Assembly (NCBI GenBank): GCA_965555375.1
Contig: CBEWDL010000002.1
Location: forward strand, 1 to 45,977
Direction of reading: 5' to 3'
Source: an uncultured bacterium
Lineage (GTDB): Bacteria > Zixibacteria > MSB-5A5 > UBA10806
Length of the DNA stretch: 45,977 bases
Made by a program: the position numbers and the translations under genes. A model generated the notes under the pieces. It had not been told where the DNA came from. It saw only the letters and a list, made by a program, of their open reading frames with translations, and searched no databases. This document shows positions 9,168 to 36,486 of this stretch, piece by piece; position 1 is the first letter of the stretch; every line of letters begins with the position of its first letter.

Positions 9168-9533
9168 ATGAATAATCTTTCTTTTAAGCGATTCTTAATC
9201 AGGATGCTAATTACCAGCGCGGCCGTTCTCGTAGTCGTTAAGATACTGCCCTGGGCAGAGGTCAGCGATCCGGGCGCGCTAATAGTCACAGCGCTGCTTC
9301 TGGGCATATTCAACTCCGTTCTCAGGCCGCTTCTCATAATTCTTACTCTGCCGATAAACATATTAAGCTTCGGTCTGTTTTTATTCATTATCAATGGGCT
9401 GATTCTTTACCTGATCGCAATCCTGGTTCCGGGATTCGAGATAAGCAGCTTCGGCGCGGCTGTGCTGGCATCGATACTAATCTCAATCACCGCCGGGACA
9501 ATCAACTGGATGATACGGGATAAGAGGCATTAA
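9168..9533 (+). CDS. small 4-TM membrane protein, DUF360 / phage-holin-family-4-like
   Basis: A 121-aa ORF with four hydrophobic segments and the NSVLRPLLxxLTLP motif, as I remember this family. Confidence 0.7.
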   Translation: MNNLSFKRFLIRMLITSAAVLVVVKILPWAEVSDPGALIVTALLLGIFNSVLRPLLIILTLPINILSFGLFLFIINGLILYLIAILVPGFEISSFGAAVLASILISITAGTINWMIRDKRH

Positions 9534-16742: not shown

Positions 16743-16790
16743 TACCCCCGGCCCGACTCGAACGGGCAACCTTCGGTTTAGGAAACCGAA
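16743..16790 (-). other. orphan 3' half of a tRNA-Arg(CCU) gene (att-site remnant)
   Basis: The - strand reads TCGGT-TTCCTAA-ACCGA (anticodon arm, CCT), then AGGTT, then GCCCG-TTCGAGT-CGGGC (T arm), then CGGGGGT-A. No matching 5' acceptor strand (ACCCCCG) or D arm follows on the 5' side. Confidence 0.7.
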
Positions 16791-16805
16791 ATACTTGACC
16801 AAAAC

Positions 16806-17108
16806 TTAAATCTGCCGCTTTTCCCTCAAAATAGACGCGTATTCTTCAGCGTCCATTGGGCATTCCAGTAAAAATTGCACATCCTCAAGTTTATCCAGAT
16901 ACAGCCGAATTTTCATTCGTTTCCAAAGAGCTTGAGGATAGGTCTTGTAGTGTGAGCCTCGAGATATTCGGGCCTGAATGTGCGTATGCCATCTATTGTC
17001 ATAGAAATAGCAGTATTTATCGTGCCCGCTTTTCTTTGATTGTTTCCTATATTTAAACCCTTTGCTCTTAAGTGACGCTATAATAGTTGTTCTTTCTATA
17101 TCACTCAT
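16806..17108 (-). CDS. hypothetical protein, weak HicA-like resemblance
   Basis: The third gene of the coupled cassette. The ATG at 17108 overlaps the upstream stop (ATGAGTGA). The ORF track offers a TTG start at 17126. The string SLKSKGFKYRKQ..SGHDKY...RGSH loosely recalls the HicA/YcfA fold. Confidence 0.6.
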   Translation of the reverse strand: MSDIERTTIIASLKSKGFKYRKQSKKSGHDKYCYFYDNRWHTHIQARISRGSHYKTYPQALWKRMKIRLYLDKLEDVQFLLECPMDAEEYASILREKRQI

Positions 17109-17616
17109 TCGATTTGAGTGTAGCAAACGCCATTAAAGTCTTCTTGAACTCTAATGTGCTATTGCCTAACTCTTCTGGAGGACTCTCCACGATGTCTTTG
17201 TAAAAGTCTATGAAAGAAGCATTAAACTCAAGCAGGGCTTTTTCTTCATTCTTCCCAAAACCATAGATGCCGAACCGCTCATTGAAAGCAATAGCATAAC
17301 CTTCTTCAAAGGATATATCGACCCGCAGAGTTACGCCTTTATCAAATAGAAGCTCCATATTGTCATATGTGATTTTGCTAAGATGGCGTGTCATAGAAGC
17401 ATCAACTTCGGACGTTGTATGAACTTCTCCACCGCTCCACGTACAAACGAAATGAAATGAGTGAATAACCATGGGTATTGCGGGAGCAGTCGTTGAAACT
17501 AATTCACGAGGCCAGCGCTTGGTTTTAGGGACGAATTTACCCTCCCCCCTGTCTACGTGGATGCTTGAGCCATAATCATTTTCTAGGATTCGAGTAATCT
17601 CTGATTCCATATCCAT
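17101..17616 (-). CDS. hypothetical protein with a HicB-like C-terminal segment
   Basis: EGYAIAFNERFGIYGFGKNEEKALLEFNASFIDFY fits the HicB/UPF0150 pattern (G-Y-x-A...G-x-G-x-x-x-E-x-A-L...Y). The N-terminal ~100 aa are unassigned. Its start shares a TAATG with the upstream gene. Confidence 0.6.
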   Translation of the reverse strand: MDMESEITRILENDYGSSIHVDRGEGKFVPKTKRWPRELVSTTAPAIPMVIHSFHFVCTWSGGEVHTTSEVDASMTRHLSKITYDNMELLFDKGVTLRVDISFEEGYAIAFNERFGIYGFGKNEEKALLEFNASFIDFYKDIVESPPEELGNSTLEFKKTLMAFATLKSNE

Positions 17617-17921
17617 TAGGTCTGTTTGCCTTCCTTTATTTCAAGGAGTCCTTTATCCACTAGGTCCGCAATTTGCTTTTCGATTACATTTTTCAAGGCA
17701 TCTGCAACATCAAATGGCAAGAGAATCTCTCTAAACAACCCAAACTTCTTTTTATCGGGATACCACTTTCCAAATGATAGCTTGATGCCTCGAGGGAAAG
17801 CATCCAATTTTACAAAATCGGAATAATCATAGTTCCCTACGCCTTCATCAACATAGAAGTATTTCTGCTGATCGGCTTTCTTCTGCGAACTTTTAGTCTT
17901 TTGGCCTTTTTCCCCACTCAT
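17616..17921 (-). CDS. hypothetical 101-aa protein (possibly DUF3467-like)
   Basis: The first gene of the cassette. A Lys-rich N-terminus is followed by YSDFVKLDAFPRGIKLSFGK...ILLPFDVADALKNVIEKQI, which weakly recalls DUF3467. Confidence 0.55.
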   Translation of the reverse strand: MSGEKGQKTKSSQKKADQQKYFYVDEGVGNYDYSDFVKLDAFPRGIKLSFGKWYPDKKKFGLFREILLPFDVADALKNVIEKQIADLVDKGLLEIKEGKQT

Positions 17922-18024
17922 AATCTAACTTATCGGTGAAAATTCACGGCCTTTTTAGTTTTATAGTCGAAAAGCTTAAACGGGCGGGGTGCTGTCCCCC
18001 GACTCAATTTTATCCACCAATTGC

Positions 18025-18052
18025 ATAATATACTGTTAAACCCCTATGTCAA
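18025..18052 (-). promoter_or_regulatory. sigma70-type promoter for the 3-gene cassette
   Basis: The - strand reads TTGACA, a 16-nt spacer, then TATTAT. This lies about 100 nt upstream of the ATG at 17921 and just downstream of the excisionase-like gene stop. Confidence 0.6.
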
Positions 18053-18067
18053 GGAAAATGTTTCATG

Positions 18068-18319
18068 TCAACCCCACAACCTCACCGGCTTCTTCCTCTG
18101 GATAAACTCATCTATGTCCCAGGGATGTAGGAGAAAGCGCCTCCCTATCGGCTGATAATACCGCAGGAATCCCCGCTTCATAGCCTGCCGGAGCGTCCTT
18201 TCGGACAGCCGGGAATATTCAGCCGCTTCCCTGACGGTCATGTATTTTCGGACGGACGGCCTCGGTTCCATGGCCACCTCTCCCCCATCATCCGCAGTCC
18301 TTCGGCTGGATCCCGGCAT
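18068..18319 (-). CDS. excisionase-family / MerR-like helix-turn-helix DNA-binding protein
   Basis: MTVREAAEYSRLSERTLRQAMKRG...LLHPWDIDEF matches the excisionase-type HTH pattern. The real start may be Met27 (18241). Confidence 0.7.
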   Translation of the reverse strand: MPGSSRRTADDGGEVAMEPRPSVRKYMTVREAAEYSRLSERTLRQAMKRGFLRYYQPIGRRFLLHPWDIDEFIQRKKPVRLWG

Positions 18320-18349
18320 CAGGCAGCCCCTCCCGCCATAAAATGGGGT

Positions 18350-18835
18350 CTACAGCTGCCAGAATTGCCGATCCCTGCCTCGGCCATAGTTCTGGGTCGA
18401 ATCTTCGGAGATCGCCCCGTTTCTGGCCGTTTTGGTCGCATTTATAGCCGTAGAATTGGGCTTAAAAAGATGGCCTCTGCCGATTTCGGCCAGCCGATCA
18501 CGCTCCTTTTCTGAAATCCGCCTTTTCCGCCTCGGTTTCGCATATTCCGCCACCAACTCAATCTGATCCGGTCGGAACAGGAATATCGCTTCCCCGTCAT
18601 CCGACAAGTTCCGAACCTCAATCTCAGGATGGTCTCGATGCAACCTGGTCCGGATTCCCCGGGCCGTACAGTGGAAGGCCAGCAGGCGAGCCGAAAACGG
18701 ATATATGCTGCCATATCTGCAAAGAAGCATAAAATACCAAAGATCCTTCTTCGCCCCCGACTCATGCCTGGCTGATTCATCAAGGGCAACGCGGTACCGA
18801 TCGCCGAATAGGTCTTTCAAATCAACGGGCAACAT
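18350..18835 (-). CDS. hypothetical protein (161 aa)
   Basis: A long ORF co-directional with its neighbours. I recognise no motif. It ends in TAG, in frame with the next ORF. Confidence 0.6.
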   Translation of the reverse strand: MLPVDLKDLFGDRYRVALDESARHESGAKKDLWYFMLLCRYGSIYPFSARLLAFHCTARGIRTRLHRDHPEIEVRNLSDDGEAIFLFRPDQIELVAEYAKPRRKRRISEKERDRLAEIGRGHLFKPNSTAINATKTARNGAISEDSTQNYGRGRDRQFWQL

Positions 18836-18891
18836 CCGTCCTGTTCCTACATCCCCCTCATTTTTCTGTTCTGGTTGATTATCTTGTTCAT

Positions 18892-18913
18892 CTTCATAGC
18901 CTAAGATTTCCTA
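18892..18913 (-). repeat. 22-bp repeat, copy A (TAGGAAATCTTAGGCTATGAAG on the - strand)
   Basis: It is identical over 22 nt to 24738-24759. It lies 56 nt upstream of the 161-aa gene start. Confidence 0.85.
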
Positions 18914-18946
18914 CTTTTTCTGACTGCTGGTTTTGACCTATTTCTC

Positions 18947-18975
18947 GTTGCCGCTAATGGGATGTTAGCGGAAAC
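18947..18975. repeat. 29-bp palindrome family, site 1
   Basis: GTTGCCGCTAA-TGGGATG-TTAGCGGAAAC. The arms pair at 10 of 11 positions around a 7-bp spacer. Confidence 0.8.
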
Positions 18976-19015
18976 GCCCCCTGTTTTATTGCCCAATTTT
19001 CTCTAATAATTGCAT

Positions 19016-20356
19016 CTACCATAGCCCCGGCTCCCAACGGATTCGATCCTCGATAAAGTGAAATTTCACCGCGCACTCGGCACCCTTGCGCTGCTTTATC
19101 AATAATTCTGCGTTGACTCCGGTCGGAGGATTATGCCGGGGCGGTTCATTATTCTCATCGCTTTCCCCTGGATAGACCCTGTGAATGAATATGATCGTAT
19201 CTGCGTCTTGCTCCAGTGCCCCGGAATCCCGTAAATCCGAAAGCTTCGGTACGGCCCTTTCGCCCCTTTTTTCGATATCGCGGCTCATCTGCGATATCGC
19301 GAGAATCGGGATATTAAGTTCCCCGGCGAGAACCTTCAGGGCGCGGGAGATCATCCTGACTTCTTCATTGCGGGAACTGATATTCCTCCCAGCACTCATC
19401 AATTGCGAATAGTCGATTATCAAAAACTCGATTTTATGGTTCAGACGCATCCGCGTCGCGATTGATTTCAGCTTTGTGATATTGACATCAGAATAATCGC
19501 AGATATAAAGCGGTTTCGATTCAAACTTATCAATGGCCTCATCAATTTTCGCCCAGCCTATATCACTTAGGGTTTCATTCGGCGTTTTGGGAATCGGTGC
19601 GTCAGCCCAATAGGAGACAATCCGCTTAGCATTCTCCAAGGCTTTCATCTCCATGCTTATGAAGCCAACAGTGATGGATTTCTCGATGAGGTTTTCGGCG
19701 ATGTTCAGGGCGAAAGCCGATTTCCCGGTTTTGGGGCGGGCCGCCAGAATGATTAATTCCCCGGCATGGAGTCCACCAATGCTATTATCCAGATCCGAAT
19801 ATCCTGTCATCAAACCTGTTCTTCTTCCAGCTTTCAAGCTTTCGATCTCTTCTTTCATTTCCGGAGCGATATCGGCCAGAGAAACAATGCTCTGCTTTCC
19901 GTTCGAAGACATCAGGCGCAATAGAGCCTTTTCGCATGATTCGATTATTTCATCTGTCGATCGCTCAGTACCGGCACAGGTGGAAACGATCTCTTTTCCA
20001 ATCGATTCCAGTTTCCTTCTGGTAGACGCCTCGATTATCAGTCTGGCGTGGTCGGCGGTGTGTCGATAGCTAACAACCGATTGGACAATATCCAAAAGAT
20101 AACGCATCCCCCCAATATCATCGTAGGCACCCATTTTCTTGAGCTCATCGGGAACGGTGATGAGATCTACGGCCTTAGATGAGCCATAAAGGGTTTCCAC
20201 GGCGGTGAAGATTTTTCTGTGTCGTGCTGAGTAGAAATCGTCCGGCTGCAGCATTTCCAGGACTATATGCCGAGCCTCCTCATTCTACAGGATTGCTCCC
20301 AAAACTTCTTGCTCGGCCTCTATCGCTTGTCGCCTGTCGAAGTCTGCCTTACTCAT
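19016..20356 (-). pseudogene. dnaB: replicative DNA helicase DnaB with an in-frame TAG at codon 24
   Basis: The ATG at 20356 overlaps the loader-gene stop (ATGA) and encodes MSKADFDRRQAIEAEQEVLGAIL. A TAG follows at 20285-20287, then NEEARHIVLEMLQPDDFY continues in the same frame into the 412-aa ORF. That ORF has Walker A GKSAFALN and a RecA-like core. Confidence 0.8.
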
Positions 20357-21060
20357 TTCGACATCCTGTAGTCTTTTCCATCGAGCTTAATGATCAAAGC
20401 ATCGTGCAATAGGCGTGAAATCAGCCTGTCGCCCAGCTTCAGAGCAAGATCCCGATAACTAAAATTTGTGGTTATGATCGTTGGCAGGCATCGATTATAG
20501 CGTCTGTTAACAATCAGGTAAAACACCTCACGAACCCATTCCGTCGCTTTCTCCACACCTAAATCGTCGATTATGAGATACGGAACGCGTGAATGTTTGT
20601 CGGTTATCTCTGCTGTCGCAATCTCGCAATCGGGATCAAAAGTCTCTTTGATCTGGTATAGAAGATCTACTCCGGCTATGAATAACACTCGTTTCAACGA
20701 ATCCCGGATGATTCGCTTTGCCAACGATACAGCCAGGTGTGTTTTGCCGACTCCGACCTTGCCGGATATGAATACATTCCTCGATTCGTCAGCCTTTTGG
20801 CTGTAATCGATAAGATCCCTTACTGCCTTCTCTTGCGAACTTGTATGCGTTTTATAATTATCAAACTCCATTGCGAGTAGCCGCTTCTCAAAGCTGCAAT
20901 CTCGAATTAGATCCCGAATGAGCCTGTTTTTCGAACATTCCGTGCAATACTCCGGTGGCTCCCGCCAAACCTTGTGTTGCTCATCGAAAACTGCGGCGAT
21001 AACGCTTCTGCAACCTTTGCACTTGCGATCCTGATATGGATTTGACTCAGATTTGGTCAT
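20353..21060 (-). CDS. DnaC/IstB-like AAA+ helicase loader with an N-terminal Cys4 cluster
   Basis: Walker A GKVGVGKTHL, Walker B LIIDDLG, and CKGC...CTEC near the N-terminus. Confidence 0.85.
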   Translation of the reverse strand: MTKSESNPYQDRKCKGCRSVIAAVFDEQHKVWREPPEYCTECSKNRLIRDLIRDCSFEKRLLAMEFDNYKTHTSSQEKAVRDLIDYSQKADESRNVFISGKVGVGKTHLAVSLAKRIIRDSLKRVLFIAGVDLLYQIKETFDPDCEIATAEITDKHSRVPYLIIDDLGVEKATEWVREVFYLIVNRRYNRCLPTIITTNFSYRDLALKLGDRLISRLLHDALIIKLDGKDYRMSK

Positions 21061-21886
21061 ATTTATCTAAATCTCCATCGTCGCCAGCAGCCTTGATTTC
21101 TTTCTGGTTTAGGTAACCTTCGAATTTTTCTGAGTACAGGGTTGCCGGTTTGAGATTTCCCACCATCTTAGGATTATTCCCCCATTCCCGAATCTTCTTT
21201 GAATTCACTATTAAAAAATTTTCAAGACAGAATCCCTCTTTGAATCTGGCCTTGATAAGCCTTTGGGTTAATTTCGCAGTTGGTGAGAATCGGGTCCCCA
21301 GCTTTTTATTCAGATCGTCGATAATTGCTTTGAAGGGAATTCCATTGTCGGAACGGACTGCATGTTTTTTGCCCGACAATAATCCTTCGTTAGAAGAATT
21401 AATTAATGGAATAGGAATAGGAATAGGAGAAGGGGCATTGCGGATTTCCGATTTCCGCATTGCGACCCGCATGCCGTCCGCATTGCGACCCGCATTAACT
21501 CCTTGTCCTCGTTTCTTTTGCCAGCGTGCTTTCGCAGCCTTTTGAGCAGCTTCTTTTCTTTCGGGTGCAAAATAAGCAAACGGATTGTGATCTTTCCAGT
21601 CGTGTAATGCCAAATCTCCGTTTTCAAGCTTGTCAAGAAGTCTCAGTTCAATCAGAAAATTAATTAGATCAGTACATTGCTCAGTTGTTCCGTCCGGGAA
21701 ATTCATGGCGATCGCAATATCGTCCATGTCCATATTGGTTAGAATCCCCTTGGGCCTGTTCTCCGCCGTCCAACCCCAGAGACGAAATAACCGGATGAAT
21801 CCTTCCTCGTAGCCTTTTTTGCGGATCAGCTTTTTTATTTTCGGGTGATCGAGGACTCCCGTATTTATCCTGAAATCGGCGGTCAT
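21047..21886 (-). CDS. phage replisome organizer / replication initiation protein (Phg_2220_C-type C-terminus)
   Basis: The C-terminus IIDDLNKKLGTRFSP....LIKARFKEGFCLENFLIVNSKKIREW......LKPATLYSEKFEGYLNQ matches the conserved phage C-terminal domain, as I remember it. Confidence 0.8.
   Translation of the reverse strand: MTADFRINTGVLDHPKIKKLIRKKGYEEGFIRLFRLWGWTAENRPKGILTNMDMDDIAIAMNFPDGTTEQCTDLINFLIELRLLDKLENGDLALHDWKDHNPFAYFAPERKEAAQKAAKARWQKKRGQGVNAGRNADGMRVAMRKSEIRNAPSPIPIPIPLINSSNEGLLSGKKHAVRSDNGIPFKAIIDDLNKKLGTRFSPTAKLTQRLIKARFKEGFCLENFLIVNSKKIREWGNNPKMVGNLKPATLYSEKFEGYLNQKEIKAAGDDGDLDKYDQI
21405..21497. repeat. iteron-like repeat cluster inside the organizer gene (candidate origin)
   Basis: (GGAATA)x3 at 21408-21425 and GATTTCC x2 at 21443-21456. 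A 19-bp perfect direct repeat TCCGCATTGCGACCCGCAT occurs at 21454-21472 and 21477-21495. A third GCATTGCG is at 21435. Confidence 0.6.
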
Positions 21887-22191
21887 TTGGGGGCCTCCGA
21901 TAACTCTGGCGAATGATGAGCCAGCACCTCTTCCTCCGGTTTATCTGGCCGGATAATTCTATAGCCCTGACCAGTTGACGAACTGTAGCCCTCTCCTTGC
22001 CAGTCGATTAGCTCGCCGATTTCACCAGCAATGTCAACGATACGACGCCCACTCGACTCAAGGCCGCCAATCCAATCGCGCTCGAGGACAATGGTAGCCC
22101 TGTGAAGTCTTTCGGCGAGAGCTATAGAAATTGTTCTAAAAGACTCTTTGAGTTTTTCTTTTTCCGATGTCATGTTCCCCTCCGATCTCAT
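21883..22191 (-). CDS. hypothetical protein (102 aa)
   Basis: An ORF coupled to the organizer gene by an ATGA overlap. The start may be Met7 (22173). No motif recognised. Confidence 0.6.
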   Translation of the reverse strand: MRSEGNMTSEKEKLKESFRTISIALAERLHRATIVLERDWIGGLESSGRRIVDIAGEIGELIDWQGEGYSSSTGQGYRIIRPDKPEEEVLAHHSPELSEAPK

Positions 22192-22434
22192 CTAATTTCT
22201 TAGAACCTCGTTAAGGCTCCCTTTTAATTTTCTTATGGATGATTGATAGTTGCCCGGTTCTACTCTGGCCTGGCCATTCAGAAACTTGATTGGGTCGTCG
22301 CCAATCTCAGCCCTACTGAAGACAAAAACCCCCTTATGCCCCTCGAGGTCTATGCGAATAAGCCTATGGCCGGATGTTAGTAGGAATGCAGATAGTGCCA
22401 GGTCGGTGGATCTGAATTCGCCGTTGTCTTTCAT
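22192..22434 (-). CDS. DUF5659-like small phage protein
   Basis: FRSTDLALSAFLLTSGHRLIRID..GHKGVFVF....DPIKFLNGQARV......IRKLKGSL fits the DUF5659 pattern. GGAGATGATTAG precedes the ATG. Confidence 0.7.
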   Translation of the reverse strand: MKDNGEFRSTDLALSAFLLTSGHRLIRIDLEGHKGVFVFSRAEIGDDPIKFLNGQARVEPGNYQSSIRKLKGSLNEVLRN

Positions 22435-22565
22435 CTAATCATCTCCAATTTCAGGAGCCGGGCCAGCCCCCGCCATCCCGGCTCCAGGCGATCGCTAAAA
22501 TTCTCACCCAAAGATCAGGGGCTGTCACAACTAACAGTTTTTCGGGGTAATGATAGGGCAGGCAG

Positions 22566-22614
22566 TTAAGCGTAAGGAATTGAATCTTTTTTAGGTCTAT
22601 TCCATTACGCTTAA
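22566..22614. repeat. 15/16-bp imperfect inverted repeat in a 297-nt non-coding gap
   Basis: TTAAGCGTAAGGAAT, an 18-nt spacer, then ATTCCATTACGCTTAA, with one bulged base. Confidence 0.7.
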
Positions 22615-22731
22615 TACATTGGCCCCGAGCGCAGAAATAAACGGGCTGTTATCATTGCGGTAAGGCCAGTTACGGGCATCATTCCGCCAACTTATTTTAT
22701 AAGGGGAAATAAAACTTTTCTTTGTAATATA

Positions 22732-24714
22732 TTACGTTTTCGAGGCGTAATGATTACCGGCACAACGGCATTGAAATAAAATTTTTGAATTTTCGTCACT
22801 ATCTGGGACAATTGGTTTAATTTCAGTCTCCAAAAATTTCTGCAAATACTTATTCAAATTACGCCGTTGTTCTCTATACGTCAATTTAAAGGGAGCATTC
22901 GGCCCATTTGGCCTGCCAGTTTTCCTTGCAATATTCAATAGAATCGTCCATTCCTTCCGAGGTTTTATCTCTTTTTTATCCCGCCTATTATTAAACCCTG
23001 CTTCTCGATAGGTTCGGGTTTCCAGTTCATCCATACCCGGAAGATATAACGATATTGATTCTTCAGATATAAAAGCCCACTCCAAGTCCTCAATCTTCCT
23101 ATCGCAGAGCGGAAATGGTTTAAATTCAATATTTTCCTCATCCTCTAAAACGTCTGCACGTTCTTCGCGTGGCTTAACCAAGTCTCCTTTTTCGCCCTGA
23201 AGTTCATCAAGATGTTTCTTTACCATGCGCGGCAAAACAAGCACGCTTTTAATGAATTCTGAAATATAATTGCTTAGCTCCCCACAGCAAGATTCGAGAT
23301 TTAAGTTGCTGTATTCTGGGGGCCCGCCAATCCAATCCTGATTCACTTTTACCGGCCTGAATTTAAACACTTCATGGAATCTGTCTTCAAATTCGTTTTT
23401 CAATTCGATAAGCAAATCGAAGAGGGCAATATAATATTCCCCCCCTTCTCCTATGAAGTGTGGGTTGACATCAAATACTGGGTATTTTGTGTGTTCCCGG
23501 GATATTCCTGCAATGCTAAATATCAAGTAAGAGGCGCCATTGCCACGCATATCGATTCCAAGAAGACTCGATTGATTAGCAATCGTGGATAACGCCTGGA
23601 TCGGCTCAATAATATACTTTTCAAGCAAAATAAAACGAAGATCACTGCCATATTTCTTGAGGTATTGAATCCTCTCCGATAGATATTCTACTTTATATTC
23701 TAATATTTTTTGAAATTCCTTGATAGTTCCATTTCGATGCGCGCTCCACTGAGAATCAAGCTCTTTGCCCGACATTGTTTTTTGGTGTTCTTGAATACTC
23801 CTTTTCCTGAAATCCTCGACATTTTGGTAGGGTTTGTAGGAAAATCTCTCGTTGAGTCTAAATGCCTTAACGTATATTTCACTTTTATATATTTTCGCTA
23901 TTTCGTTATGAGTATCTTGTACAAAACTCTCCGCCCCGGAATTGATTTCCCCGTATAAATTGTCGTTAATGAGCTCAGAATTTCGTAATTTCTCAATCTG
24001 GGCGATCAACTTGTCGCCTCTATTTTTGCTTTTACTTAACTTCTCTATCTTGTCATCAACTGAAGCTTTCAGAGAATTCTGATCTGTGGAGCTGTTTTCT
24101 GACATCGGGGTTGATTTGTTCTCTATCTCCTTTTGGCCCTCAGGTTCCAGAGTGGCGGGTTGAACGTCGCCAAACGCCTCAAGTTCACGGCGGAAAACAT
24201 CCGGTATCTTCGGGCAATTGCGTTCGATGCAAAGAGCAGCCTTGCGGTCGATCTGCTTTATCTTAAGTCCCATTTCATCATATTCCGATTCTGTAAGAGA
24301 TTCATCGGAATTCACGTCATGAAGCATAGGGTGTTTCATGTTGAAAAATAGGTTTACCATCTCATCACGCGCCTTAAGTCCCCCACCTTGTTCTGACTCT
24401 TTTTTTTCTCCATAATAATATGCAATGGGGGGGTCGGTGGCATTGATGGCATTTTTGAATTTCTCAGGTTTACTCTCAAAAACGGGAGCGCTCAATACAG
24501 ATATATACTGGTCTCTGAATGCAAACATGCTATCTACAAATGTCTTTCTTTTATGCCCATGAGGATCATAAGGATCGGGAGCCAGCGGCTTGCCGCGTTT
24601 GCCGCTATCCCCGACGCGATACCATTCTATGATTGAATATATGAATCCGACTCTTTCACTGACTAATTTAGCGAGATAATGCTTCGATTTTCTCGTTACT
24701 TGGGGGCTGTTCAT
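22732..24714 (-). CDS. orphan 660-aa protein of unknown function (low-GC cargo)
   Basis: An uninterrupted ORF preceded by AAGGAGATATTTAGCCCCC-ATG. I recognise no family motif. The central region is Lys/Glu/Ser-rich. Confidence 0.85.
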   Translation of the reverse strand: MNSPQVTRKSKHYLAKLVSERVGFIYSIIEWYRVGDSGKRGKPLAPDPYDPHGHKRKTFVDSMFAFRDQYISVLSAPVFESKPEKFKNAINATDPPIAYYYGEKKESEQGGGLKARDEMVNLFFNMKHPMLHDVNSDESLTESEYDEMGLKIKQIDRKAALCIERNCPKIPDVFRRELEAFGDVQPATLEPEGQKEIENKSTPMSENSSTDQNSLKASVDDKIEKLSKSKNRGDKLIAQIEKLRNSELINDNLYGEINSGAESFVQDTHNEIAKIYKSEIYVKAFRLNERFSYKPYQNVEDFRKRSIQEHQKTMSGKELDSQWSAHRNGTIKEFQKILEYKVEYLSERIQYLKKYGSDLRFILLEKYIIEPIQALSTIANQSSLLGIDMRGNGASYLIFSIAGISREHTKYPVFDVNPHFIGEGGEYYIALFDLLIELKNEFEDRFHEVFKFRPVKVNQDWIGGPPEYSNLNLESCCGELSNYISEFIKSVLVLPRMVKKHLDELQGEKGDLVKPREERADVLEDEENIEFKPFPLCDRKIEDLEWAFISEESISLYLPGMDELETRTYREAGFNNRRDKKEIKPRKEWTILLNIARKTGRPNGPNAPFKLTYREQRRNLNKYLQKFLETEIKPIVPDSDENSKILFQCRCAGNHYASKT

Positions 24715-24737
24715 GGGGGCTAAATATCTCCTTACAA

Positions 24738-24759
24738 CTTCATAGCCTAAGATTTCCTA
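24738..24759 (-). repeat. 22-bp repeat, copy B
   Basis: It is identical to 18892-18913 and ends 23 nt upstream of the 660-aa gene ATG. Confidence 0.85.
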
Positions 24760-24829
24760 TTCTTCACCTTGCCAAAATCATGCCCTTTTTTTGAGTCCAG
24801 ACAATTTCGTTTATACCCGTTTTCACCCG

Positions 24830-25051
24830 TTATTTCCCCTTCCGGACATGCTCCTTCAGTTGGTCAATAATGTCCTCGACTGAGTGTACCTTCTTGGTGT
24901 TGATGCGGGCAGATTTGAGGAGGTGGACAAGATTCACGAGCAACTCGGTTTTAGTGATTTTTACGCCGCTATCCAAACGAATCCGCGCCGGTAATTCTTC
25001 AAGAACGTTATTGATTTCGTCAGGTAAAAGAAATGTAGCCTTAACAGCCAT
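24830..25051 (-). CDS. small DNA-binding protein, ribbon-helix-helix-like (73 aa)
   Basis: The N-terminal beta-strand-like KATFLLPDEI followed by helices (NNVLEEL...KTELLVNLVHLL) fits an RHH pattern. GGGGGATTAACGC precedes the ATG. Confidence 0.55.
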   Translation of the reverse strand: MAVKATFLLPDEINNVLEELPARIRLDSGVKITKTELLVNLVHLLKSARINTKKVHSVEDIIDQLKEHVRKGK

Positions 25052-25074
25052 GCGTTAATCCCCCTAAAATTACG

Positions 25075-25103
25075 ATTGCCGATAATGCGTAATTAACGGA
25101 AAT
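25075..25103. repeat. 29-bp palindrome family, site 2
   Basis: ATTGCCGATAA-TGCGTAA-TTAACGGAAAT. The arms pair at 9 of 11 positions. It lies 24-52 nt upstream of the RHH-like gene start and overlaps a second inverted repeat, AATTACG-N13-CGTAATT (25068-25094). Confidence 0.75.
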
Positions 25104-25193
25104 GGCCGGAATAAATAAGATCAGGAAGGCCTCCAAATTTCCCACAGGCGGCTGAGCCCGGGAGACCGTATTTGATTGATCGGTAAGTTCGGG

Positions 25194-25226
25194 CAAAAAG
25201 AAAGGGGAGTCGGCAAGGCTCCCCTT
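25194..25226 (-). terminator. intrinsic terminator after the PepSY-like lipoprotein gene
   Basis: An 8-bp stem AAGGGGAG/CTCCCCTT with a 9-nt loop, followed on the - strand by TCTTTTTG. Confidence 0.65.
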
Positions 25227-25280
25227 CGCTATTATCCTTATGTGGATTGGCCTACATTTGAATTGACGGAAGGTGTCAGG

Positions 25281-26080: not shown

Positions 26081-28369
26081 TTATGCGGCTTTGCTGAACG
26101 CAGCCTTTCTCCTCCTCACAACCGCAACGGTCCCAGCGGCCAACAACAACAACCCCATTATCAGCATGCCCCATTCGGAGAGAGTGGGGATCTCCATGGT
26201 TTCGCATTCTATGATTTTAACTGATACAGCATCAATACCGGCCTCGACAACTGATCCCTCACCGAGGTCGGAAGCCTCGAAACGGATTCTAACCTGGCTT
26301 GTTGGAATTATGAAATTGGCAGCCGCGAAAGACTGTTCTGTCCAGCCCGACGTAGTATGGGGACCATATGTTTCAACTAATGTCCAGTTAGCCCCATCGT
26401 CGTTCGAGATATGCACGTTGAAGACATCACTGTTAGGGGCATTACAAGCATTGTTTGTGTACCAAAGGGCATAGTCAATAATGGCATCACTTCCGCTCAG
26501 ATCAAAGTCAGGGGATATAAGCCATGTATAACCGTCATCCACGTCTGAATTATCGTCGGCATTATCTGTAATAAAGCAGTAACCTGAACCATCGAAATCA
26601 GCGGGGGGGTCGCCCCTATCGCCGCCGCCCGCCGGTATACCTCGTTCCCATTGGCCGTCGCTACAACTATTCTCAACGACCCAACCCTGATCGGTGTTGA
26701 AATCGTCCTCGAATATGGAAACGAGTTCATCAGCGCTTAAGGCCGAATAGCTGACATCCGGAGCAGTGGGGGGATCAGTAACAAGTGTGCCCTCTTCAGT
26801 CTCCGCACTTACATAGAACGATACCTCCACGCCACATTCCAGAGCAGGGAAGACAGCGTCGTAAACATTAGGTGCTACAATCTCCATCGGAATAGTCGTG
26901 AAATCCCCCCCGCTGCTGTAGTGTAGAATTCCTGTGCCTGGTTGAGGATTCGATGCCCCGGGAATAACCTCAACGCGGAATGATGTCCCGCCAGCGGGTG
27001 CAATCAGGTCCGGCAAACCCGCCGGATAGTTAAATTCAATAAGCAGCGGTGACCATAATCCAGCCACGGTCGCCAGAGTTGCTATGGCTCCTTTTACAAC
27101 TTCAGTCGCATAATCGAGATCAAGGTTTGTTATAACATCGTTAGTAGTATGATACCATGGATACCAATCCGGCGCATCCCATAGCTGGGCATCGATTGAA
27201 AAAGGGGCGGGAAAGCCATAATACGAGAAATAATAATGGTCGCTGCCATATTGCGGACCTATTGTATTGACACGTATTGAATAGGCGCTTGAGTAATCAT
27301 CCGTCAGGAAAGCGAGAAGATCTGCAAGAGCCACTTCAGCCAGGAAGGTTTGATCACTGTAAATATTGGTGTCCCACCCAAATCCCCCAGCGTAGGCCAC
27401 CATATCGAAATTCAACACTCCGGCAACGTTACGGTTGTTGAGAAAACAGAATTCAGCGTAAGCCTCTGAGCCGTACAGACCCTGCTCCTCACCGGAGACG
27501 AGAACAAACTCGATGGTGCAATTAAAATCGTACTGGCTTAAAACCCGTGCCGCTTCCACAACGCATGCTGAACCGGAGCCGTTATCTTCAGCTCCAGGGG
27601 CGGAATACTCAGGATTCTCTGAAGTCGCATCTATGTGCCCGATGATTATATATATCGAGTCAGGATAGACCGCGCCCACTTTTCTGCCGATGGCGTCATA
27701 CCAGGTCTCATCATAGTAGGTATATGGAAAAAGTTCAGTTTCGAATCCCAGGTCTGTGAACGTGCTGATACCCCACAACTCGGCCGCCCGGCACGAGTCC
27801 ATATATGAGTAGCGGGTCACAAAATCCTGCAACCTTTGAACATATGCCGTGTATTCCGCCTGGCTCACATGGCTTACAATCTCCTCAATCTCGGGATCGG
27901 TCAGAAGGTTAAACGACGGTTTGACCGGCTTTCCCTCCAGCCTCGGCTTGGCCCTGAAAGAAATATGGGTTAGCCCCTTCATCAATAGAGTTGATTGCGA
28001 ATCAAGTATCGTTTCCGTCATTGCTATGGCCTCACCATCTCCGTAATAGACGACATCGATGCCAGCGGCAAGCCTTTCGATATCCTGACTGCTTATCTGG
28101 AAAAGGAAATACTCACGATTCTCCTCACGTTTGCCTATGTTTTCAATAGCATAGCCTTCAACCTTAAGATTTCTTAATCCTGCAGGTGTTGTTCCTACAA
28201 GAACGCCACTTTTCATAATTGCATAGACGTTGACTTCTTCCAACGCAACGACAGCCCCCACATCCGCCGATCCGTCCATGACAATGTATAGATCCTCAGC
28301 AGGAGCAACCGAGAAACTGGTGAAAATTGCCCAAATCAACACCAACATGCCTTTGAAGCTAATGAACAT
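26081..28369 (-). CDS. secreted M28 family metallopeptidase with an IPTL-CTERM-type sorting tag
   Basis: Signal peptide, then GHIDATS, GAEDNGSGSA and SGEEQGLYGS (M28 metal ligands). The C-terminus is IPTLSEWGMLIMGLLLLAAGTVAVVRRRK. Confidence 0.85.
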   Translation of the reverse strand: MFISFKGMLVLIWAIFTSFSVAPAEDLYIVMDGSADVGAVVALEEVNVYAIMKSGVLVGTTPAGLRNLKVEGYAIENIGKREENREYFLFQISSQDIERLAAGIDVVYYGDGEAIAMTETILDSQSTLLMKGLTHISFRAKPRLEGKPVKPSFNLLTDPEIEEIVSHVSQAEYTAYVQRLQDFVTRYSYMDSCRAAELWGISTFTDLGFETELFPYTYYDETWYDAIGRKVGAVYPDSIYIIIGHIDATSENPEYSAPGAEDNGSGSACVVEAARVLSQYDFNCTIEFVLVSGEEQGLYGSEAYAEFCFLNNRNVAGVLNFDMVAYAGGFGWDTNIYSDQTFLAEVALADLLAFLTDDYSSAYSIRVNTIGPQYGSDHYYFSYYGFPAPFSIDAQLWDAPDWYPWYHTTNDVITNLDLDYATEVVKGAIATLATVAGLWSPLLIEFNYPAGLPDLIAPAGGTSFRVEVIPGASNPQPGTGILHYSSGGDFTTIPMEIVAPNVYDAVFPALECGVEVSFYVSAETEEGTLVTDPPTAPDVSYSALSADELVSIFEDDFNTDQGWVVENSCSDGQWERGIPAGGGDRGDPPADFDGSGYCFITDNADDNSDVDDGYTWLISPDFDLSGSDAIIDYALWYTNNACNAPNSDVFNVHISNDDGANWTLVETYGPHTTSGWTEQSFAAANFIIPTSQVRIRFEASDLGEGSVVEAGIDAVSVKIIECETMEIPTLSEWGMLIMGLLLLAAGTVAVVRRRKAAFSKAA

Positions 28370-28765: not shown

Positions 28766-30391
28766 TTAGATGCTTCTGTCTAAGGCAATCTTCCTCCTCC
28801 TCACAACCGCAACCGTCCCGATAGCCAACAGCAGCAAGGCCAGCACGATCATGCCCCATTCGGAGAGAGTGGGGATCTCCTGAATTTCACATGCATCATC
28901 AATTCCGTTCTCGTTGCTGTCTCCGAGACACTCGGTTCCGGCACCCAACCATTCATGACCGGCCTCAATGCAATCCTCCTCGGTTATTTCCTGGCAGGCA
29001 CCCTCGGCTGAGCAACATGCCCCGGTGGAGGACAGCCTGGCGGAAAAAACATCCTGGTTGCCGTTTCTGGTGTCGGTCCAGACCATCTGAACCTCCCCCT
29101 GCCAGGCGGATAGACCGATATACTCCCCTATCAAGCCCGCGAGACGGGCATCGCTGGGGTTCGATGATACCGTGGTAATTCTTTCGTTTACCGACCACGT
29201 ATCGCCGCCGTCGGTAGATTTCGTGTAATAAAGATCGAAAAGCCAATTATTCTGGTCCAGACGTCTATCGTAAAAGATGGCATGGATTACGCCTGTTTCG
29301 TCAATTGCTATCCAGGGATGAAACTGATCGGCGCCATTATGTTCCGGATCATCGTTGATCCTTATGGGCTCTGACCATGTGGCCCCGTTGTCTTCGGATT
29401 TCATAAAGAAGATATCCATATCGGTAACGTTCTCGTCCATAAAGGCTAAATAGAGATTGCCCGTATATGGCGATAAAGAACTGACGTCAGAGGTCAGGGC
29501 AGGATAGGGAAAAACCAGGATGCCGCCGTTGATTTCACCCGACGAGGCGTTGGTTTCGGTAATTACCTGGTCATTTCCAAAGGTCATTCCCTGATCGAAG
29601 GAAACATCCATCAAAATCCCGCGGGTCGGATAATACTGGAACCAGGCCACAAACACCTCACCCGATACGCCAACCGCCGGAACCGACCACTGAACGCCCT
29701 CGTCGTCCGATACGGAAACCGGATCCGAATAGGTTTCTCCGCCATCGGTGGAGGATACAAGCAGGATCGTGGTACTAAAAAACCTTGTCCAGCTAATGTA
29801 TATATTGCCGTTGGTGGGACCGCTGGTTCTATCGAGGGTTATCCATTGCTTGTCCTCAAAGACTCCTTCGACTGAATCAATAGCGATGACGGGCTCCGAC
29901 CAGCTCATCCCGCCGTCGGTTGATTTCTGTACATAGATCCCGGACGGCTCGTCAAACGTTCCCTCATACGCCAACGTGCAGGCGAAATAATTGCCGTCAT
30001 CGTCTACAGTCAGCACCGGATCAGAAACCCAAGGACGATAGGGAACATCCAGCAGGGCATCGTACCAGGTCTGGCCGCCATCGAAAGTATATCCGGATGC
30101 CACCTGACGGTAACCGAGACGGAAATCGCGCCAGACGGCGACAGCGTTAGCCGTATTGGTGGGATTGATGCAAACCATCTCTTCATTCTGCAGCTGAGTT
30201 GTATTGTCGCTGTTTACCTGGATATTGTCCACATCGAGGATAACCGGGGGGACATAGGGTGCATCCGAGATTGGATACTCCAGAGGCGATAACGGAAATG
30301 GTTCGGAGTGGTCAATATCGCCTGCCCGGATATTACTTTGCAGCAAACAGACTATTGTGGCAAAAATAGAAAATATTAATTTTCTCCGCAT
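28766..30391 (-). CDS. BNR/Asp-box repeat (sialidase-fold) protein with an IPTL-CTERM-type sorting tag
   Basis: Signal peptide and Asp-boxes STDGGMSWS, STDGGETYS, SEDNGATWS and STDGGDTWS. The C-terminus is IPTLSEWGMIVLALLLLAIGTVAVVRRRK. Confidence 0.85.
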   Translation of the reverse strand: MRRKLIFSIFATIVCLLQSNIRAGDIDHSEPFPLSPLEYPISDAPYVPPVILDVDNIQVNSDNTTQLQNEEMVCINPTNTANAVAVWRDFRLGYRQVASGYTFDGGQTWYDALLDVPYRPWVSDPVLTVDDDGNYFACTLAYEGTFDEPSGIYVQKSTDGGMSWSEPVIAIDSVEGVFEDKQWITLDRTSGPTNGNIYISWTRFFSTTILLVSSTDGGETYSDPVSVSDDEGVQWSVPAVGVSGEVFVAWFQYYPTRGILMDVSFDQGMTFGNDQVITETNASSGEINGGILVFPYPALTSDVSSLSPYTGNLYLAFMDENVTDMDIFFMKSEDNGATWSEPIRINDDPEHNGADQFHPWIAIDETGVIHAIFYDRRLDQNNWLFDLYYTKSTDGGDTWSVNERITTVSSNPSDARLAGLIGEYIGLSAWQGEVQMVWTDTRNGNQDVFSARLSSTGACCSAEGACQEITEEDCIEAGHEWLGAGTECLGDSNENGIDDACEIQEIPTLSEWGMIVLALLLLAIGTVAVVRRRKIALDRSI

Positions 30392-31835: not shown

Positions 31836-33599
31836 TCATTTCTGATTCAGACTCTTCTTGAAAGTATGATAGGGGATCGGTTGCTGCTCAACGCCGAATA
31901 TGTCAAGGGCATTTCCTCGTTTCCCTCCGTCGGTGGTTTGATTCTGCGATGAGAATCCATTACTGCCGTAATACTCAGAGGTTCTGCAGGGCCATAGCGG
32001 CAATCCGGATGCAGAAAAATCCTCAGCCGTATGTCGTTCCTGTCGCCCCCGTTCCCCATAGGTATTTTCCAAAAGCTGAAGTACATATTTGCCGCGTTCG
32101 TGCAATGCCTGACTTCTCTGATCGACCTGTTCTCTCATGCGGCGAGCAAAACCCTTGAGCCTTACCTGATCGACAGGATCGGTTATCTTCACAAAATCAT
32201 ATATCTGACAGAGACAAGCATAGGTATCAAGATTCGTTTCCTTGATAAAATTTCGGGCTGATGCCCGCAGACTTTGAGTCAGAAGCTCTGGATGGAAGCG
32301 GCGTAATAGTTGAAAACAGAAATCAACCTGCATATTGAAGTAATGCAGGCCGAAGTCGCTGAAATTGCGCTCGAAAAAGGCATAGTTGGCTATCTTGTGA
32401 AAAGCCTCGGAGTAGGGATCTTTGAGCCTGTAATCATGCCCAAAATAATCTCCCAGAAGCCTCCCCTCGGCTTTCAGTTTGTTCTCCAGCCCGGTTCCTG
32501 TATGAACCTCCGCGCGGCAGAAATTAAACGGATTTTCGATATGTTGTTCAATGAACCGCAGGTTGATGAGGATATCATCCAGTATGGTATCCGGTTCGAA
32601 CATCAGAAGGTTGAAAGCGACATGTACATCGAAAGAGTTGAGAATCTCAAGAGAATTGAGAATCTGTTCATAGCTGCATTTCCGGTTCAGATTTCGCAGT
32701 CCTCGCTCGGAAGCGTTCTCCACACCCAGGAATACGCGAAACAGACCGAGATCATCAAGAACCTCCACCGACTCTCGCGTTATGCTGTCGGGACGCGCCT
32801 TGATTGCTATCGCCATTTTATCCACGCCCGCCCGTCTCAGGCCCTCTCTCAATTCCTTAAAGCGGCTAAGCGCTATGTCCGGTTTGGGATGAAAGAAGTT
32901 ATCATCCTGAAAGTTGAATACGCGAACGTCGTAATCAAAATAAAGCTCTTTCATCTCAGCAATGATATTATCAATACTTCGCAGCCTGAATTTCCTGCCG
33001 CCGCCTCGTTCATACCATGCGTTGATACTGCAAAAGGCGCAGTTACGCCAACATCCCCGACCGGAAAGAATGCTGGCAATCGGCTTGTCGAAATAATCAT
33101 GAAATGAAGTCCGCTTGGGAAATGGCAGCAGGTCGAGCTTTTCGGGATTGCTGATGGATGGATTTGTGGCAATTTGGCCATCAGAATCGCGAAAACATAA
33201 TCCCGGTATTTCCGAGATGTTGTCAATATTCTCCGCCAGCTTACATATCAACTCTTCGCCCTCGCCAAGCCCTATTGAGTCGAACACGGGATAATCCTTG
33301 AGAAGTTGTTCGCCATTGAACGAGGCAAACGGTCCCCCTGCAATAATATGGTTTCTGTAGTTATCATCACGAAGCGCCTTGGCGAGATCGATAAACTCCA
33401 TGGCGCGGGAAGTAAAAACCATCGAAAGGCCTACTATTGCCGGTGAGGTTTCTCTTACATGCTTTACTGCTTCAGGGATATCATTTTGATTGTTGTATGA
33501 AATTATGTCTACCTGATGACCTTTGACCTCAAGGGCTGATGCCATATAACGAAGACCAAGATTTTCTTCCAGTTCCGCGCCTATAAGTGCAATGTTCAT
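31836..33599 (-). CDS. B12-binding domain-containing radical SAM protein
   Basis: An N-terminal cobalamin-binding-like Rossmann segment (IALIGAELEENLGLRYMASALEVKGHQV...IVGLSMVF) followed by the CWRNCAFC (CX3CX2C) cluster. 587 aa. Confidence 0.88.
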   Translation of the reverse strand: MNIALIGAELEENLGLRYMASALEVKGHQVDIISYNNQNDIPEAVKHVRETSPAIVGLSMVFTSRAMEFIDLAKALRDDNYRNHIIAGGPFASFNGEQLLKDYPVFDSIGLGEGEELICKLAENIDNISEIPGLCFRDSDGQIATNPSISNPEKLDLLPFPKRTSFHDYFDKPIASILSGRGCWRNCAFCSINAWYERGGGRKFRLRSIDNIIAEMKELYFDYDVRVFNFQDDNFFHPKPDIALSRFKELREGLRRAGVDKMAIAIKARPDSITRESVEVLDDLGLFRVFLGVENASERGLRNLNRKCSYEQILNSLEILNSFDVHVAFNLLMFEPDTILDDILINLRFIEQHIENPFNFCRAEVHTGTGLENKLKAEGRLLGDYFGHDYRLKDPYSEAFHKIANYAFFERNFSDFGLHYFNMQVDFCFQLLRRFHPELLTQSLRASARNFIKETNLDTYACLCQIYDFVKITDPVDQVRLKGFARRMREQVDQRSQALHERGKYVLQLLENTYGERGRQERHTAEDFSASGLPLWPCRTSEYYGSNGFSSQNQTTDGGKRGNALDIFGVEQQPIPYHTFKKSLNQK

Positions 33600-35096: not shown

Positions 35097-36125
35097 ATGG
35101 TTTCGCTTTTTTCAGAAAGACGGTTTATGGTGGCTGAACTATAGATATAACGGTGAAAGGTATCGTGTTTCAACCGGGACTCGAAATGAGAATCTCGCTG
35201 AAAAGAAGCGGCAAGAGTTTGAGGTCATGCTTTTCAAAGGTATTCGCCCAACCGAAGAAAACCCAAGAAGCAAAAGGACTACAATTTTCGATATATTCTG
35301 CCGGTTCTTAATTCACTCTGAAAAATCTAAGGCCAAAACCACCTGGAAAACTGAAAGAGTATTTCTTAAATTCTGGCAGGAGTTTTTCTCCCGAAAGGGA
35401 ATAAAATATGCCGAGCAGATCAACCATACCGTGATAACTGATTTCCAGATAGAATCCGATATTGGTCCAAGGGGTTTCAACAATGCTTTGACATTGCTAA
35501 GAACCGTGTTCAATAGGGCGATTGATTGGGGAATGCTTGACAAAAATCCTACTCATGGATTCAAGAAAATCAAGATCCCCAAAAAGTTGAAATACTATAC
35601 AGATGATGAACTTGAAAAGTTGTTGTCCGCAGCATCGCCCCGCCAACAAACGATCATCGCGCTCGGTGCTTTTGCAGGTCTTAGAAATGCCGAAATGGTA
35701 AACCTAAGATGGCGCGATATTGATTTTCAAAACAGAATCCTTGAAGTCAGATCGGACGATGAGGTCACCCCAAAAGGCAAACGTCCTCGCTCTATACCAA
35801 TGCACGACCGGCTGATACAGACACTGATGGCATATAAGAGCAATGATACCAACCTAAATGTATTTCCGAGAAATGACTGTCGAGGACCAAAATGTGGCAT
35901 AAATAGCCCGTCTAATGAGTTCAGAGTACTACTACGCCAGGTCGGATTAAAAGGAAGCCACCATACCCTCAGGCATACTTTTGGAACCAGGCTGGTTAAA
36001 AATGGTGTGCCTTTGCCTGTTGTGCAAGCACTCTTGGGTCATGCCGACATTGAATCCCCACCATGATTTATGTACATCTGGCACCTGGGCAATTCAGGGA
36101 TGCGATAAATCAACTGTCACCATAG
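35097..36125 (+). pseudogene. int: tyrosine recombinase/integrase with two homopolymer frameshifts
   Basis: AAGGAG lies 12 nt before the ATG at 35097. The frame changes in the T6 run at 35107-35112, continuing as QKDGLWWLNYRYNGERYRVSTG.... The main ORF 35227-36066 has RNAEMVNLRW and HTLRHTFGTRL...LLGHADIE. After the C4 run at 36056-36059 the catalytic-Tyr segment TMIYVHL is in another frame, ending at 36125. Confidence 0.8.
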
Positions 36126-36254
36126 TGTCACCAAAATCCGCCATATTTAAGTATATCTATGCTAATCTATGCATTCCAGGCGATGTAGGATTTCCCTGCG
36201 CAAAAACCCTATATTTCAACCAATTAACTCAAAAATAAGGGGATATAAAAACAC

Positions 36255-36347: not shown

Positions 36348-36486
36348 AGAATTATTATAGTCATCGCCATCCAGCGAATCAAGGCAAAAGGGATGGGGCG
36401 AAACGGTGTTTTGCCCCTATAGATATGATTTCTTAATCGATTTGCCCGTGGTGGCAGAAGTTACTTCTGCCACCTATTGCCAAATA

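Follow-up and report, generated by a model that had tools for sequence, protein, structure and literature searches.

Replication modules of the lambda O/P type and the SPP1 organiser/loader/helicase type combine a two-domain initiator carrying internal iterons with an AAA+ loader and a DnaB-type helicase, encoded in one operon. Here we describe a module of this make-up in an 8.3-kb block of foreign DNA on contig C2 of a metagenome-assembled genome (MAG) of an uncultured Zixibacteria bacterium (G000; 244 contigs, rated 95% complete). The whole of C2 (45,977 bp) was analysed and is referred to as the window. The reading that we favour, although with some reserve, is that the block represents the 8.3 kb adjoining attR of a compact integrative replicon, derived from a phage and about 9.5 kb in size, which was inserted at tRNA-Arg(CCT) and was later split by a rearrangement.

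For the phage-inducible chromosomal islands (PICIs), five core components have been described, namely an integrase, an alpA/merR/stl regulator, a primase-replicase, a small terminase, and a capsid-morphogenesis gene, and the median island measures 9.5 kb and encodes 15 proteins (PMC10085698). In the parts of that description drawn on here, elements with three core genes are treated as ambiguous, the capsid-morphogenesis gene is missing from some true PICIs, and tail and holin genes are counted as 'forbidden' components (PMC10085698). Little literature was found on the mobile elements of Zixibacteria: 10 of the papers searched mention Zixibacteria as well as prophage, and in no case do the two terms meet in a title or abstract.

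Protein families were sought in Pfam (also at a permissive E <= 10), PHROGs, PADLOC, and NCBIfam. tRNA genes were predicted with ARAGORN, and other RNAs were searched with Rfam in the 14-38 kb part of the window, where only the tRNA-Sec was found. The assembly was checked on Logan contigs (k=31) rather than on reads, using runs X4 and X5 of one study, which is possibly the MAG's own source, and run X1 of a different study on marine sediment. Among the relatives, G001 belongs to the same genus as G000, and G008 is a complete genome of another genus.

The two att sites at tRNA-Arg(CCT)

Twelve open reading frames (ORFs), all on the minus strand, occupy 16,806-25,051 and cover 89% of 16,790-25,090, in agreement with the initial annotation of the window. 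The foreign DNA adjoins a partial tRNA gene on one side, and the matching intact gene was found on another contig of the assembly, C113, next to an integrase gene.

16743-16789, minus strand: attR, a 3' segment of tRNA-Arg(CCT) that extends from the anticodon stem up to the acceptor end, 47 nt identical to C113 9497-9543
C113 9470-9544: the sole intact tRNA-Arg(CCT) of the assembly (ARAGORN)
C113 9683-10720, reading towards the tRNA: open tyrosine integrase gene, 345 aa (PF00589, 65.7 bits), with the catalytic-Tyr region present

The tRNA-Arg half that had been noticed at this end is real, as the exact 47-nt match shows. The integrase gene is separated from the intact tRNA by 139 nt. In all four relatives examined (G001, G003, G006, and G007, from four genera), the site was vacant, and the gene order was leucyl-tRNA synthetase (LeuRS), GH57, tetratricopeptide-repeat protein (TPR), FadL-type outer-membrane protein (OMP), tRNA-Arg(CCT), metallophosphoesterase, HU, S49 peptidase, and soluble lytic transglycosylase (SLT). 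This order unites the left flank of the block on C2 with the chromosomal part of C113. The flank of C2 below 16743 aligned with the G001 sequence after tRNA-Arg and is the ancestral downstream flank. The C113 sequence after the intact tRNA-Arg is not homologous to the G001 flank and is new. Given these vacant sites, C113 holds attL and the integrase gene (int), and the window holds attR. Judged from the alignment of attB, attL, and attR with G001, this is the classical insertion pattern. The gene order that the initial annotation had expected at the empty site (OMP, tRNA-Arg, PepSY) was wrong: metallophosphoesterase and HU follow the tRNA in the relatives, and no PepSY-like gene was found in the five relatives searched.

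attL and attR lie on different contigs and not on one contiguous foreign stretch. No 11-mer of the att region was found elsewhere in the window, and no att sequence was found at 25052-25092. The GC contents of the block and of the C113 integrase piece are 45.1% and 45.4%, respectively, compared with 49.4% for the genome. Conservation of the block throughout the relatives, which had been named as evidence against mobility, was not seen: block DNA was not found in 40 relatives, save for DnaB fragments and a host repeat described below.

A close homologue of the 345-aa integrase was present in only one of the 40 relatives (G013, 71% identity), again beside tRNA-Arg(CCT). This gene is therefore a sporadic mobile gene and not a host gene. 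Genome contigs yielded only distant relatives of the integrase (<=29% identity over the full length). The G013 homologue is a pseudogene with two in-frame stops (positions 954-2208 of locus L051, G013:C1:2551000-2570999); as a second, decayed copy of the same integrase type, it marks tRNA-Arg(CCT) as an insertion hotspot. The pseudogene is followed by ORFs of 1240 aa and 505 aa and then by core genes, and the FadL gene of G013 lies 0.97 Mb from that locus in the opposite orientation.

It had been suggested that the integrase might have been lost from the element; instead, an intact 345-aa recombinase stands beside tRNA-Arg(CCT) on C113. An 'integrase-less' element in a fragmented MAG can have its other end on another contig, and a tRNA half together with the empty sites of relatives locates the missing end quickly. 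No virion structural, packaging, or lysis gene was detected on C113 after the integrase.

The reconstructed unit would measure about 9.5 kb and carry 13 genes, with 1.24 kb on C113 and 8.3 kb on C2. Its proposed order would be attL (the intact tRNA), a leftward int, and then, rightward, the 73-aa gene, a 660-aa orphan, the DUF5659 gene, the 102-aa gene, an O-like initiator gene containing the iterons, the genes for a DnaC-like loader and DnaB, the 161-aa gene, an excisionase gene, a separately promoted three-gene cassette, and attR. Judging from their families, the integrase would recombine the 47-nt core, the HTH_17/TIGR01764 protein would set the directionality towards excision, and the initiator would bind the iterons and load the element's own DnaB via the DnaC-like loader.

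Gene content of the block

All 12 ORFs are intact in the MAG sequence. They are listed below in the proposed rightward order, together with the repeats and the promoter match.

24830-25051, minus strand: first gene of the rightward set, 73 aa, no family
24735-24764, minus strand: copy 2 of a 30-nt repeat, just upstream of the 660-aa gene
22732-24714, minus strand: 660-aa orphan in a low-GC stretch (~40%), no family
22192-22434, minus strand: DUF5659 protein, 80 aa (24.9 bits against a cut-off of 23.6)
21883-22434, minus strand: head of the replication operon, comprising a 102-aa protein (no family) and the DUF5659 protein
21047-21886, minus strand: replication initiator/replisome organiser, 279 aa (PF09524, 66.5 bits; phrog_428, phrog_1163)
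21454-21495, unstranded: pair of identical 19-nt iterons spaced 23 nt apart within the initiator gene, adjoined by a partial inverted copy
20353-21060, minus strand: DnaC/IstB-like AAA+ helicase loader, 235 aa (PF01695, 78.3 bits; phrog_50, E 3e-57)
19016-20254, minus strand: DnaB-family replicative helicase, 412 aa (PF03796, 237.9 bits; phrog_19)
18889-18918, minus strand: copy 1 of the 30-nt repeat, upstream of the 161-aa gene
18350-18835, minus strand: 161-aa protein, no family
18068-18319, minus strand: HTH_17/excisionase-family protein, 83 aa (PF12728, 45.6 bits; TIGR01764 'excise', 41.5 bits against a cut-off of 28.8; phrog_66)
18025-18052, minus strand: best sigma-70-like promoter match of the block, TTGACA-16-TATTAT, 11/12, upstream of the cassette (a consensus match only)
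16806-17921, minus strand: three-gene cassette, genes overlapping by 1 and 8 nt, no family
17616-17921, minus strand: cassette gene, 101 aa, no family
17101-17616, minus strand: cassette gene, 171 aa, no family
from ATG at 17108, minus strand: cassette gene, 100 aa (or 106 aa from TTG at 17126), no family

Families were assigned to five of the 12 proteins, and the Pfam, PHROG, and TIGR matches support the earlier labels of initiator, DnaC-like loader, DnaB, excisionase-like helix-turn-helix (HTH) protein, and DUF5659 protein. The other seven (73, 660, 102, 161, 101, 171, and 100/106 aa) matched no Pfam, PHROG, PADLOC, or NCBIfam family. As had been noted, no integrase, capsid, terminase, or lysis gene was detected inside the block; nor were tail, holin, or packaging families detected among its 12 proteins by Pfam and PHROGs, or any fragment of a structural, lysis, or packaging gene. 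Because of the seven unassigned proteins, structural and integrase genes are described here as not detected rather than absent. The packing of the genes into many ATGA or TAATG overlaps had been overstated: among the 11 junctions, four overlap (by 1, 4, 8, and 14 nt; one ATGA and one TAATG), one abuts, and six are gaps of 30-297 nt.

In the initiator, a PSPIPIPIP linker connects the N-terminal domain to a Phg_2220_C domain, and the iterons within its gene may form the origin of replication. The block DnaB scores under the NCBIfam equivalog cut-offs and is 39% identical to the host's own DnaB, which sits on C186. Its match to the 'primase/helicase' family phrog_239 covers the helicase part only, and no primase domain was found in the block. 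An initiator locus search with a 3-sequence alignment as the query (an 8-sequence alignment was too divergent) gave 34 loci. One of these, L053, is an identical 1.1-kb fragment in a marine-sediment assembly of the European Nucleotide Archive (ENA). The other 33 have at most the N-domain in common (26-44% identity); a DnaB- or DnaC-like gene is also present in four of them, and none shares any unassigned block protein. No close relatives of the initiator were found among viral contigs.

The 660-aa orphan gave five matches among 1.84 billion representatives, one being its own fragment and the best non-self match showing 41% identity, and a pattern scan of genome contigs, which detects close relatives only, found none. 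Look-alikes in Atlas fell into unnamed clusters, half of them viral for the 161-aa protein and partly viral for the 171-aa cassette protein. The 660-aa orphan and, after it, the other six unassigned proteins are candidates for a role in interference with phages. The two copies of the 30-nt repeat are 90% identical to each other and are a candidate shared operator or promoter element.

Several assignments were tried and rejected. The ribbon-helix-helix (RHH)-like label that the initial annotation had given to the 73-aa protein was not confirmed, with no family match, a single-sequence model of low confidence (predicted local distance difference test, pLDDT, 68.9), and no fold match at E<=0.001. 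HicB/HicA identities for the 171- and 100-aa cassette proteins, suggested by a motif likeness, were dropped for lack of support in Pfam at E<=10, NCBIfam, PDB, and Atlas; a PDB sequence search with the cassette proteins gave nothing meaningful. A kinship of the 100-aa protein with DUF5659 was likewise not upheld, as the match was weak (E 0.063) and BLASTP against the block DUF5659 protein produced no alignment.

Inner ends, the proposed inversion, and alternative explanations

At the end of the block away from attR, and beyond int on C113, the foreign DNA meets sequence of the host lineage. The features concerned are as follows.

25092-25260, unstranded: host-lineage intergenic repeat, outside the element, with a conserved box and a terminator hairpin at 25204-25224
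C44 13358-13506, C111 148-264, C147 2966-3066, and C113 10781-10824 (hairpin-less): copies of the host repeat in G000
35227-36066, facing tRNA-SeC: truncated tyrosine integrase, 279 aa, cut at ~36056 before the catalytic Tyr and ending in ...LLGHADIESPP

Of the boundaries first proposed, the one at the tRNA half held. The one at the terminator of the PepSY-like gene did not, as the foreign DNA already ends between 25,052 and ~25,092; the host-type repeat begins near 25,092, and its hairpin terminates that gene. The repeat consists of a conserved box of ~35 nt, ~15 nt, an A-run, and a GC hairpin with compensatory stem changes between copies; the hairpin is its only consensus structure. There are 11 matches in G000, and the repeat is present in six of the 14 family genomes counting G000, with copies in G001, G002, G007, G008, and G013. 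It may be a promoter or an operator. On C113, a hairpin-less host box lies 61 nt beyond the integrase start codon and is followed by a gene for a small membrane protein. This family has four paralogues in G000, at least two of which carry the same upstream box, and copies in five of five relatives. The inner ends of the foreign DNA thus meet host-type sequence within tens of bases of the int start and of the first rightward gene. Exact matches between the two junction regions are at most 14 nt long, which makes a misjoin through repeats improbable at these places. Recombination through the host repeat was considered as the cause of the split and rejected: crossing-over within inverted copies keeps the outer flanks and cannot part int from the next gene.

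Beyond the repeat, 25.26-30.5 kb carries the PepSY-like gene and genes for an M28 peptidase and a BNR-repeat protein at a genome-typical GC content (49.0%). The M28 peptidase (26081-28369) and the BNR-repeat protein (28766-30391) both end in IPTL-CTERM sorting tails; such tails and the terminators that follow them recur among paralogues and give branch points in k=31 assemblies. A second, separate island with a GC content of 45.7% occupies 30.5-36.25 kb at tRNA-SeC (36254-36348). Among the genes it carries are one for a B12-binding radical-SAM protein (31836-33599), which matches PADLOC PDC-M51A weakly, and several unassigned ORFs. A 12-nt match between 36214 and 30557 was rejected as an att repeat, since it is at chance level. 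The genes in the remainder of C2 (36.3-45.9 kb; PIG-L, GT4, BshC, AcrB, and two others) show synteny to the tRNA-SeC block in three relatives, and none of the queried proteins of 16.8-36.1 kb follows the tRNA-SeC block in those three (E <= 1e-8). On the other side of the element, in core DNA between the M16 peptidase and LeuRS genes, lies a Phage_holin_4_2 gene (9168-9533; PF04020, 96 bits), which is outside the element.

C2 links the FadL side of tRNA-Arg with the PIG-L side of tRNA-SeC, which are on different contigs in G001. In G001, the tRNA-SeC block is followed, after 6 kb, by selD and orthologues of the G000 contig C90. In G008, the tRNA-SeC block (plus strand) and the FadL/tRNA-Arg block (minus strand) are convergent and 0.54 Mb apart, and an inversion between these two blocks would give the order seen in C2. 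In the simplest case, one inversion would have broken the element in the short spacer between int and the first gene, with the other breakpoint in host DNA downstream of tRNA-SeC, and would yield both junctions seen together with the gene orientations of C2. attL with int, and the remainder with attR, would now lie at two distant junctions in inverted orientation. Int and Xis acting on attL and attR would then flip the intervening DNA rather than release a circle, and the replicon would be immobilised and carried passively at single copy. The event would be a probable island-associated inversion in an uncultured sediment lineage.

Several observations weigh against this reconstruction. The neighbourhood of the host-like stretch at 25.26-30.5 kb is not conserved: PepSY was missing from the matches in all five relatives searched, and the BNR orthologue of G001 (87% identity) lies in yet another neighbourhood. 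More than one rearrangement may therefore be involved. In G008, 13 kb of core genes separate FadL from tRNA-Arg. The assembly contains the partner junction only in part, as C113 ends 400 nt past the integrase gene and C90 starts inside selD, ~50 N-terminal codons of which (including the Sec/Cys site) are absent from the assembly. No second copy of the tRNA-SeC 3' end was found in the window or elsewhere in the genome. Between 26.15 and 36.33 kb, several short repeats interrupt the X4 and X5 contigs; contiguity there is that of the MAG contig, as it is at the C113 junction. No related element with the same gene set was found in the collections searched, so that the 9.5-kb unit has been reconstructed and does not represent a recurrent type. 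Finally, the X4, X5, and X1 contigs carry an additional base at 21423, within the (CCTATT)3 run that codes for the initiator's PIPIPIP linker; this base would shift the frame between the two domains, so that most cells may have a broken initiator. In X5, one 23-nt iteron unit (21454-21476) is missing as well. The MAG version of the initiator is open and aligns with its homologues across 21423. If real, these variants fit a stranded, decaying element.

The alternative that survives best, although we regard it as rather unlikely, is that the block is a deletion remnant of a full-size temperate phage that was never a satellite and whose late genes once lay between the replication module and attR. 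The initiator, the loader, and DnaB match the phage families phrog_428, phrog_50, and phrog_19, respectively, and metagenome contigs contain relatives of the initiator's N-domain, in some cases adjoining DnaB or DnaC. The possible initiator frameshift and the variant in iteron number would suggest decay, and the integrase homologue of G013 is a pseudogene. On the other hand, none of the 12 ORFs is disrupted in the MAG, and together they take up 89% of the block, in which Pfam and PHROGs detected no structural, lysis, or packaging fragment; the interval between DnaB and attR measures only 2.2 kb and has its own strong promoter match; and the excisionase gene is far from int, unlike in most temperate phages. 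We lean towards a satellite-type element over a deleted prophage.

It is improbable that the split reflects an assembly artefact, in which C2 would be chimeric between ~26.15 and 36.3 kb (or C113 would be chimeric) and the element would be unsplit, maybe larger, and still mobile. The genome is a MAG of 244 contigs, and Logan contigs break at 26154-26194, 28851-28879, ~29320-29329, 30260-30289, 36253-36282, and 36301-36330, where branches arise from the paralogous IPTL-CTERM tails and from strain variants. However, single contigs of X4 and X5 each cover 16743 to ~26190 and place the left junction (25.05-25.26 kb), the PepSY-like gene, and the start of the M28 tail on one contig. This junction is already with host-type repeat DNA, and on C113 the integrase likewise borders directly on a gene family of host type. 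Exact repeats at the Logan breaks can only be short, one Logan record matching 26103-26194 with 11 mismatches. Depth is flat over all pieces: in X4, the block has 124 compared with 123.5 and 130-133 for its flanks, and in X5, 17.7 compared with 17.7 and 19. A chimera at 25.2 kb, one of the objections raised in the initial annotation, is excluded by these bridging contigs at flat depth. At 16.79 kb, the other place named, the X4 and X5 contigs break (16743-16772), which is what a 47-nt repeat would cause at k=31; support for the FadL/attR junction accordingly comes from the MAG contig and from flank homology with G001. X1 holds the block in short pieces with 0-1 differences.

The circular junctions or coverage steps that had been suggested as signs of mobility were not seen in the X4 and X5 contigs. 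Among the contigs, none was listed that joins 16.79 kb to 25.1 kb, although rare circles could escape. There is no sign of extra-chromosomal copies, and the depth is that of a single copy.

A bolder proposal, which we hold to be doubtful, is that the 9.5-kb unit is the first-seen member of an undescribed phage-satellite family in Zixibacteria. Such a family would combine replication by initiator, loader, and DnaB, in place of a primase-replicase, with helper-hijacking or anti-phage orphans, namely the 660-aa protein with a small partner and the three-gene cassette, and with an attL/attR switch flipping about half a megabase.

Lastly, it is very improbable that the block relies on the broken integrase at 35227-36066 or forms a unit with it. 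Dependence on this gene, 10 kb away, had been suggested; it is on the same contig, and everything between is on the minus strand. However, this 279-aa integrase belongs to the tRNA-SeC island, faces tRNA-SeC and not tRNA-Arg, stops before the catalytic-Tyr region, is only distantly related to the 345-aa integrase (cross-matches to the other's locus show only 25-33% identity and are in other genomes), and is separated by host-like DNA (GC 49.0%) from the block, whose att core matches tRNA-Arg. In run X1, the 279-aa integrase reads on through a TMIYVHL-type motif.

Comparison with known systems

Under our preferred reading of a split integrative replicon, the element resembles the replication modules of temperate siphoviruses in its initiator with internal iterons, its loader and DnaB, and the phage PHROG and Pfam families to which these belong. 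It differs from them in that the block has no adjacent lysogeny switch of a known family and no late genes downstream.

Compared with the PICIs and the Staphylococcus aureus pathogenicity islands (SaPIs), as far as the portions of the published descriptions used here extend, the element has a specific att site, an outward-reading int at one end with the remaining genes opposite, a protein of the HTH-regulator or excisionase type, a replication module of its own that includes a candidate internal origin, and no detected tail, holin, or structural genes, and its reconstructed size (~9.5 kb, 13 genes) is near the median. The integrase component is represented by the 345-aa gene on C113 and not by a gene inside the block, and the regulator is possibly present as the HTH_17/TIGR01764 excisionase-family protein. 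In contrast, replication would proceed through an O-like initiator, a DnaC-like loader, and DnaB without a primase-replicase; the small terminase and capsid-morphogenesis genes were not detected among the 12 block proteins by Pfam and PHROGs; the host phylum is outside those reported; and the element is split from its integrase. Since no packaging or capsid gene was found, the element cannot be counted as a PICI. Thus, of the initial description as a satellite/PICI-like element or prophage remnant, the foreign, phage-derived replication module was borne out and the PICI membership was not. The alpha primase-helicase and the psu-delta-sid operon of P4-like satellites had no Pfam or PHROG match in the block, and the element cannot be filed under PICIs, P4-like elements, or prophages.

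The PICMI (phage-inducible chromosomal minimalist islands; PMC10803314) and virion-encapsidated elements (PMC9618062), likened here by description only and as far as the excerpts used describe them, are similar in being small and integrative elements of marine bacteria with a reduced gene content and no capsid-remodelling genes; they differ in their hosts, which are Vibrionaceae or planktonic.

The features in common with tRNA islands and cryptic prophages carrying tyrosine integrases are the 47-nt duplication of the tRNA 3' end, the intact tRNA beside int, the empty site in relatives, and the GC content below that of the genome. The difference is that the att sites are on separate contigs with host DNA on their inner sides. 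It therefore appears that the island was disrupted by rearrangement and did not simply decay in place. The element is of an ordinary kind in a little-studied lineage.

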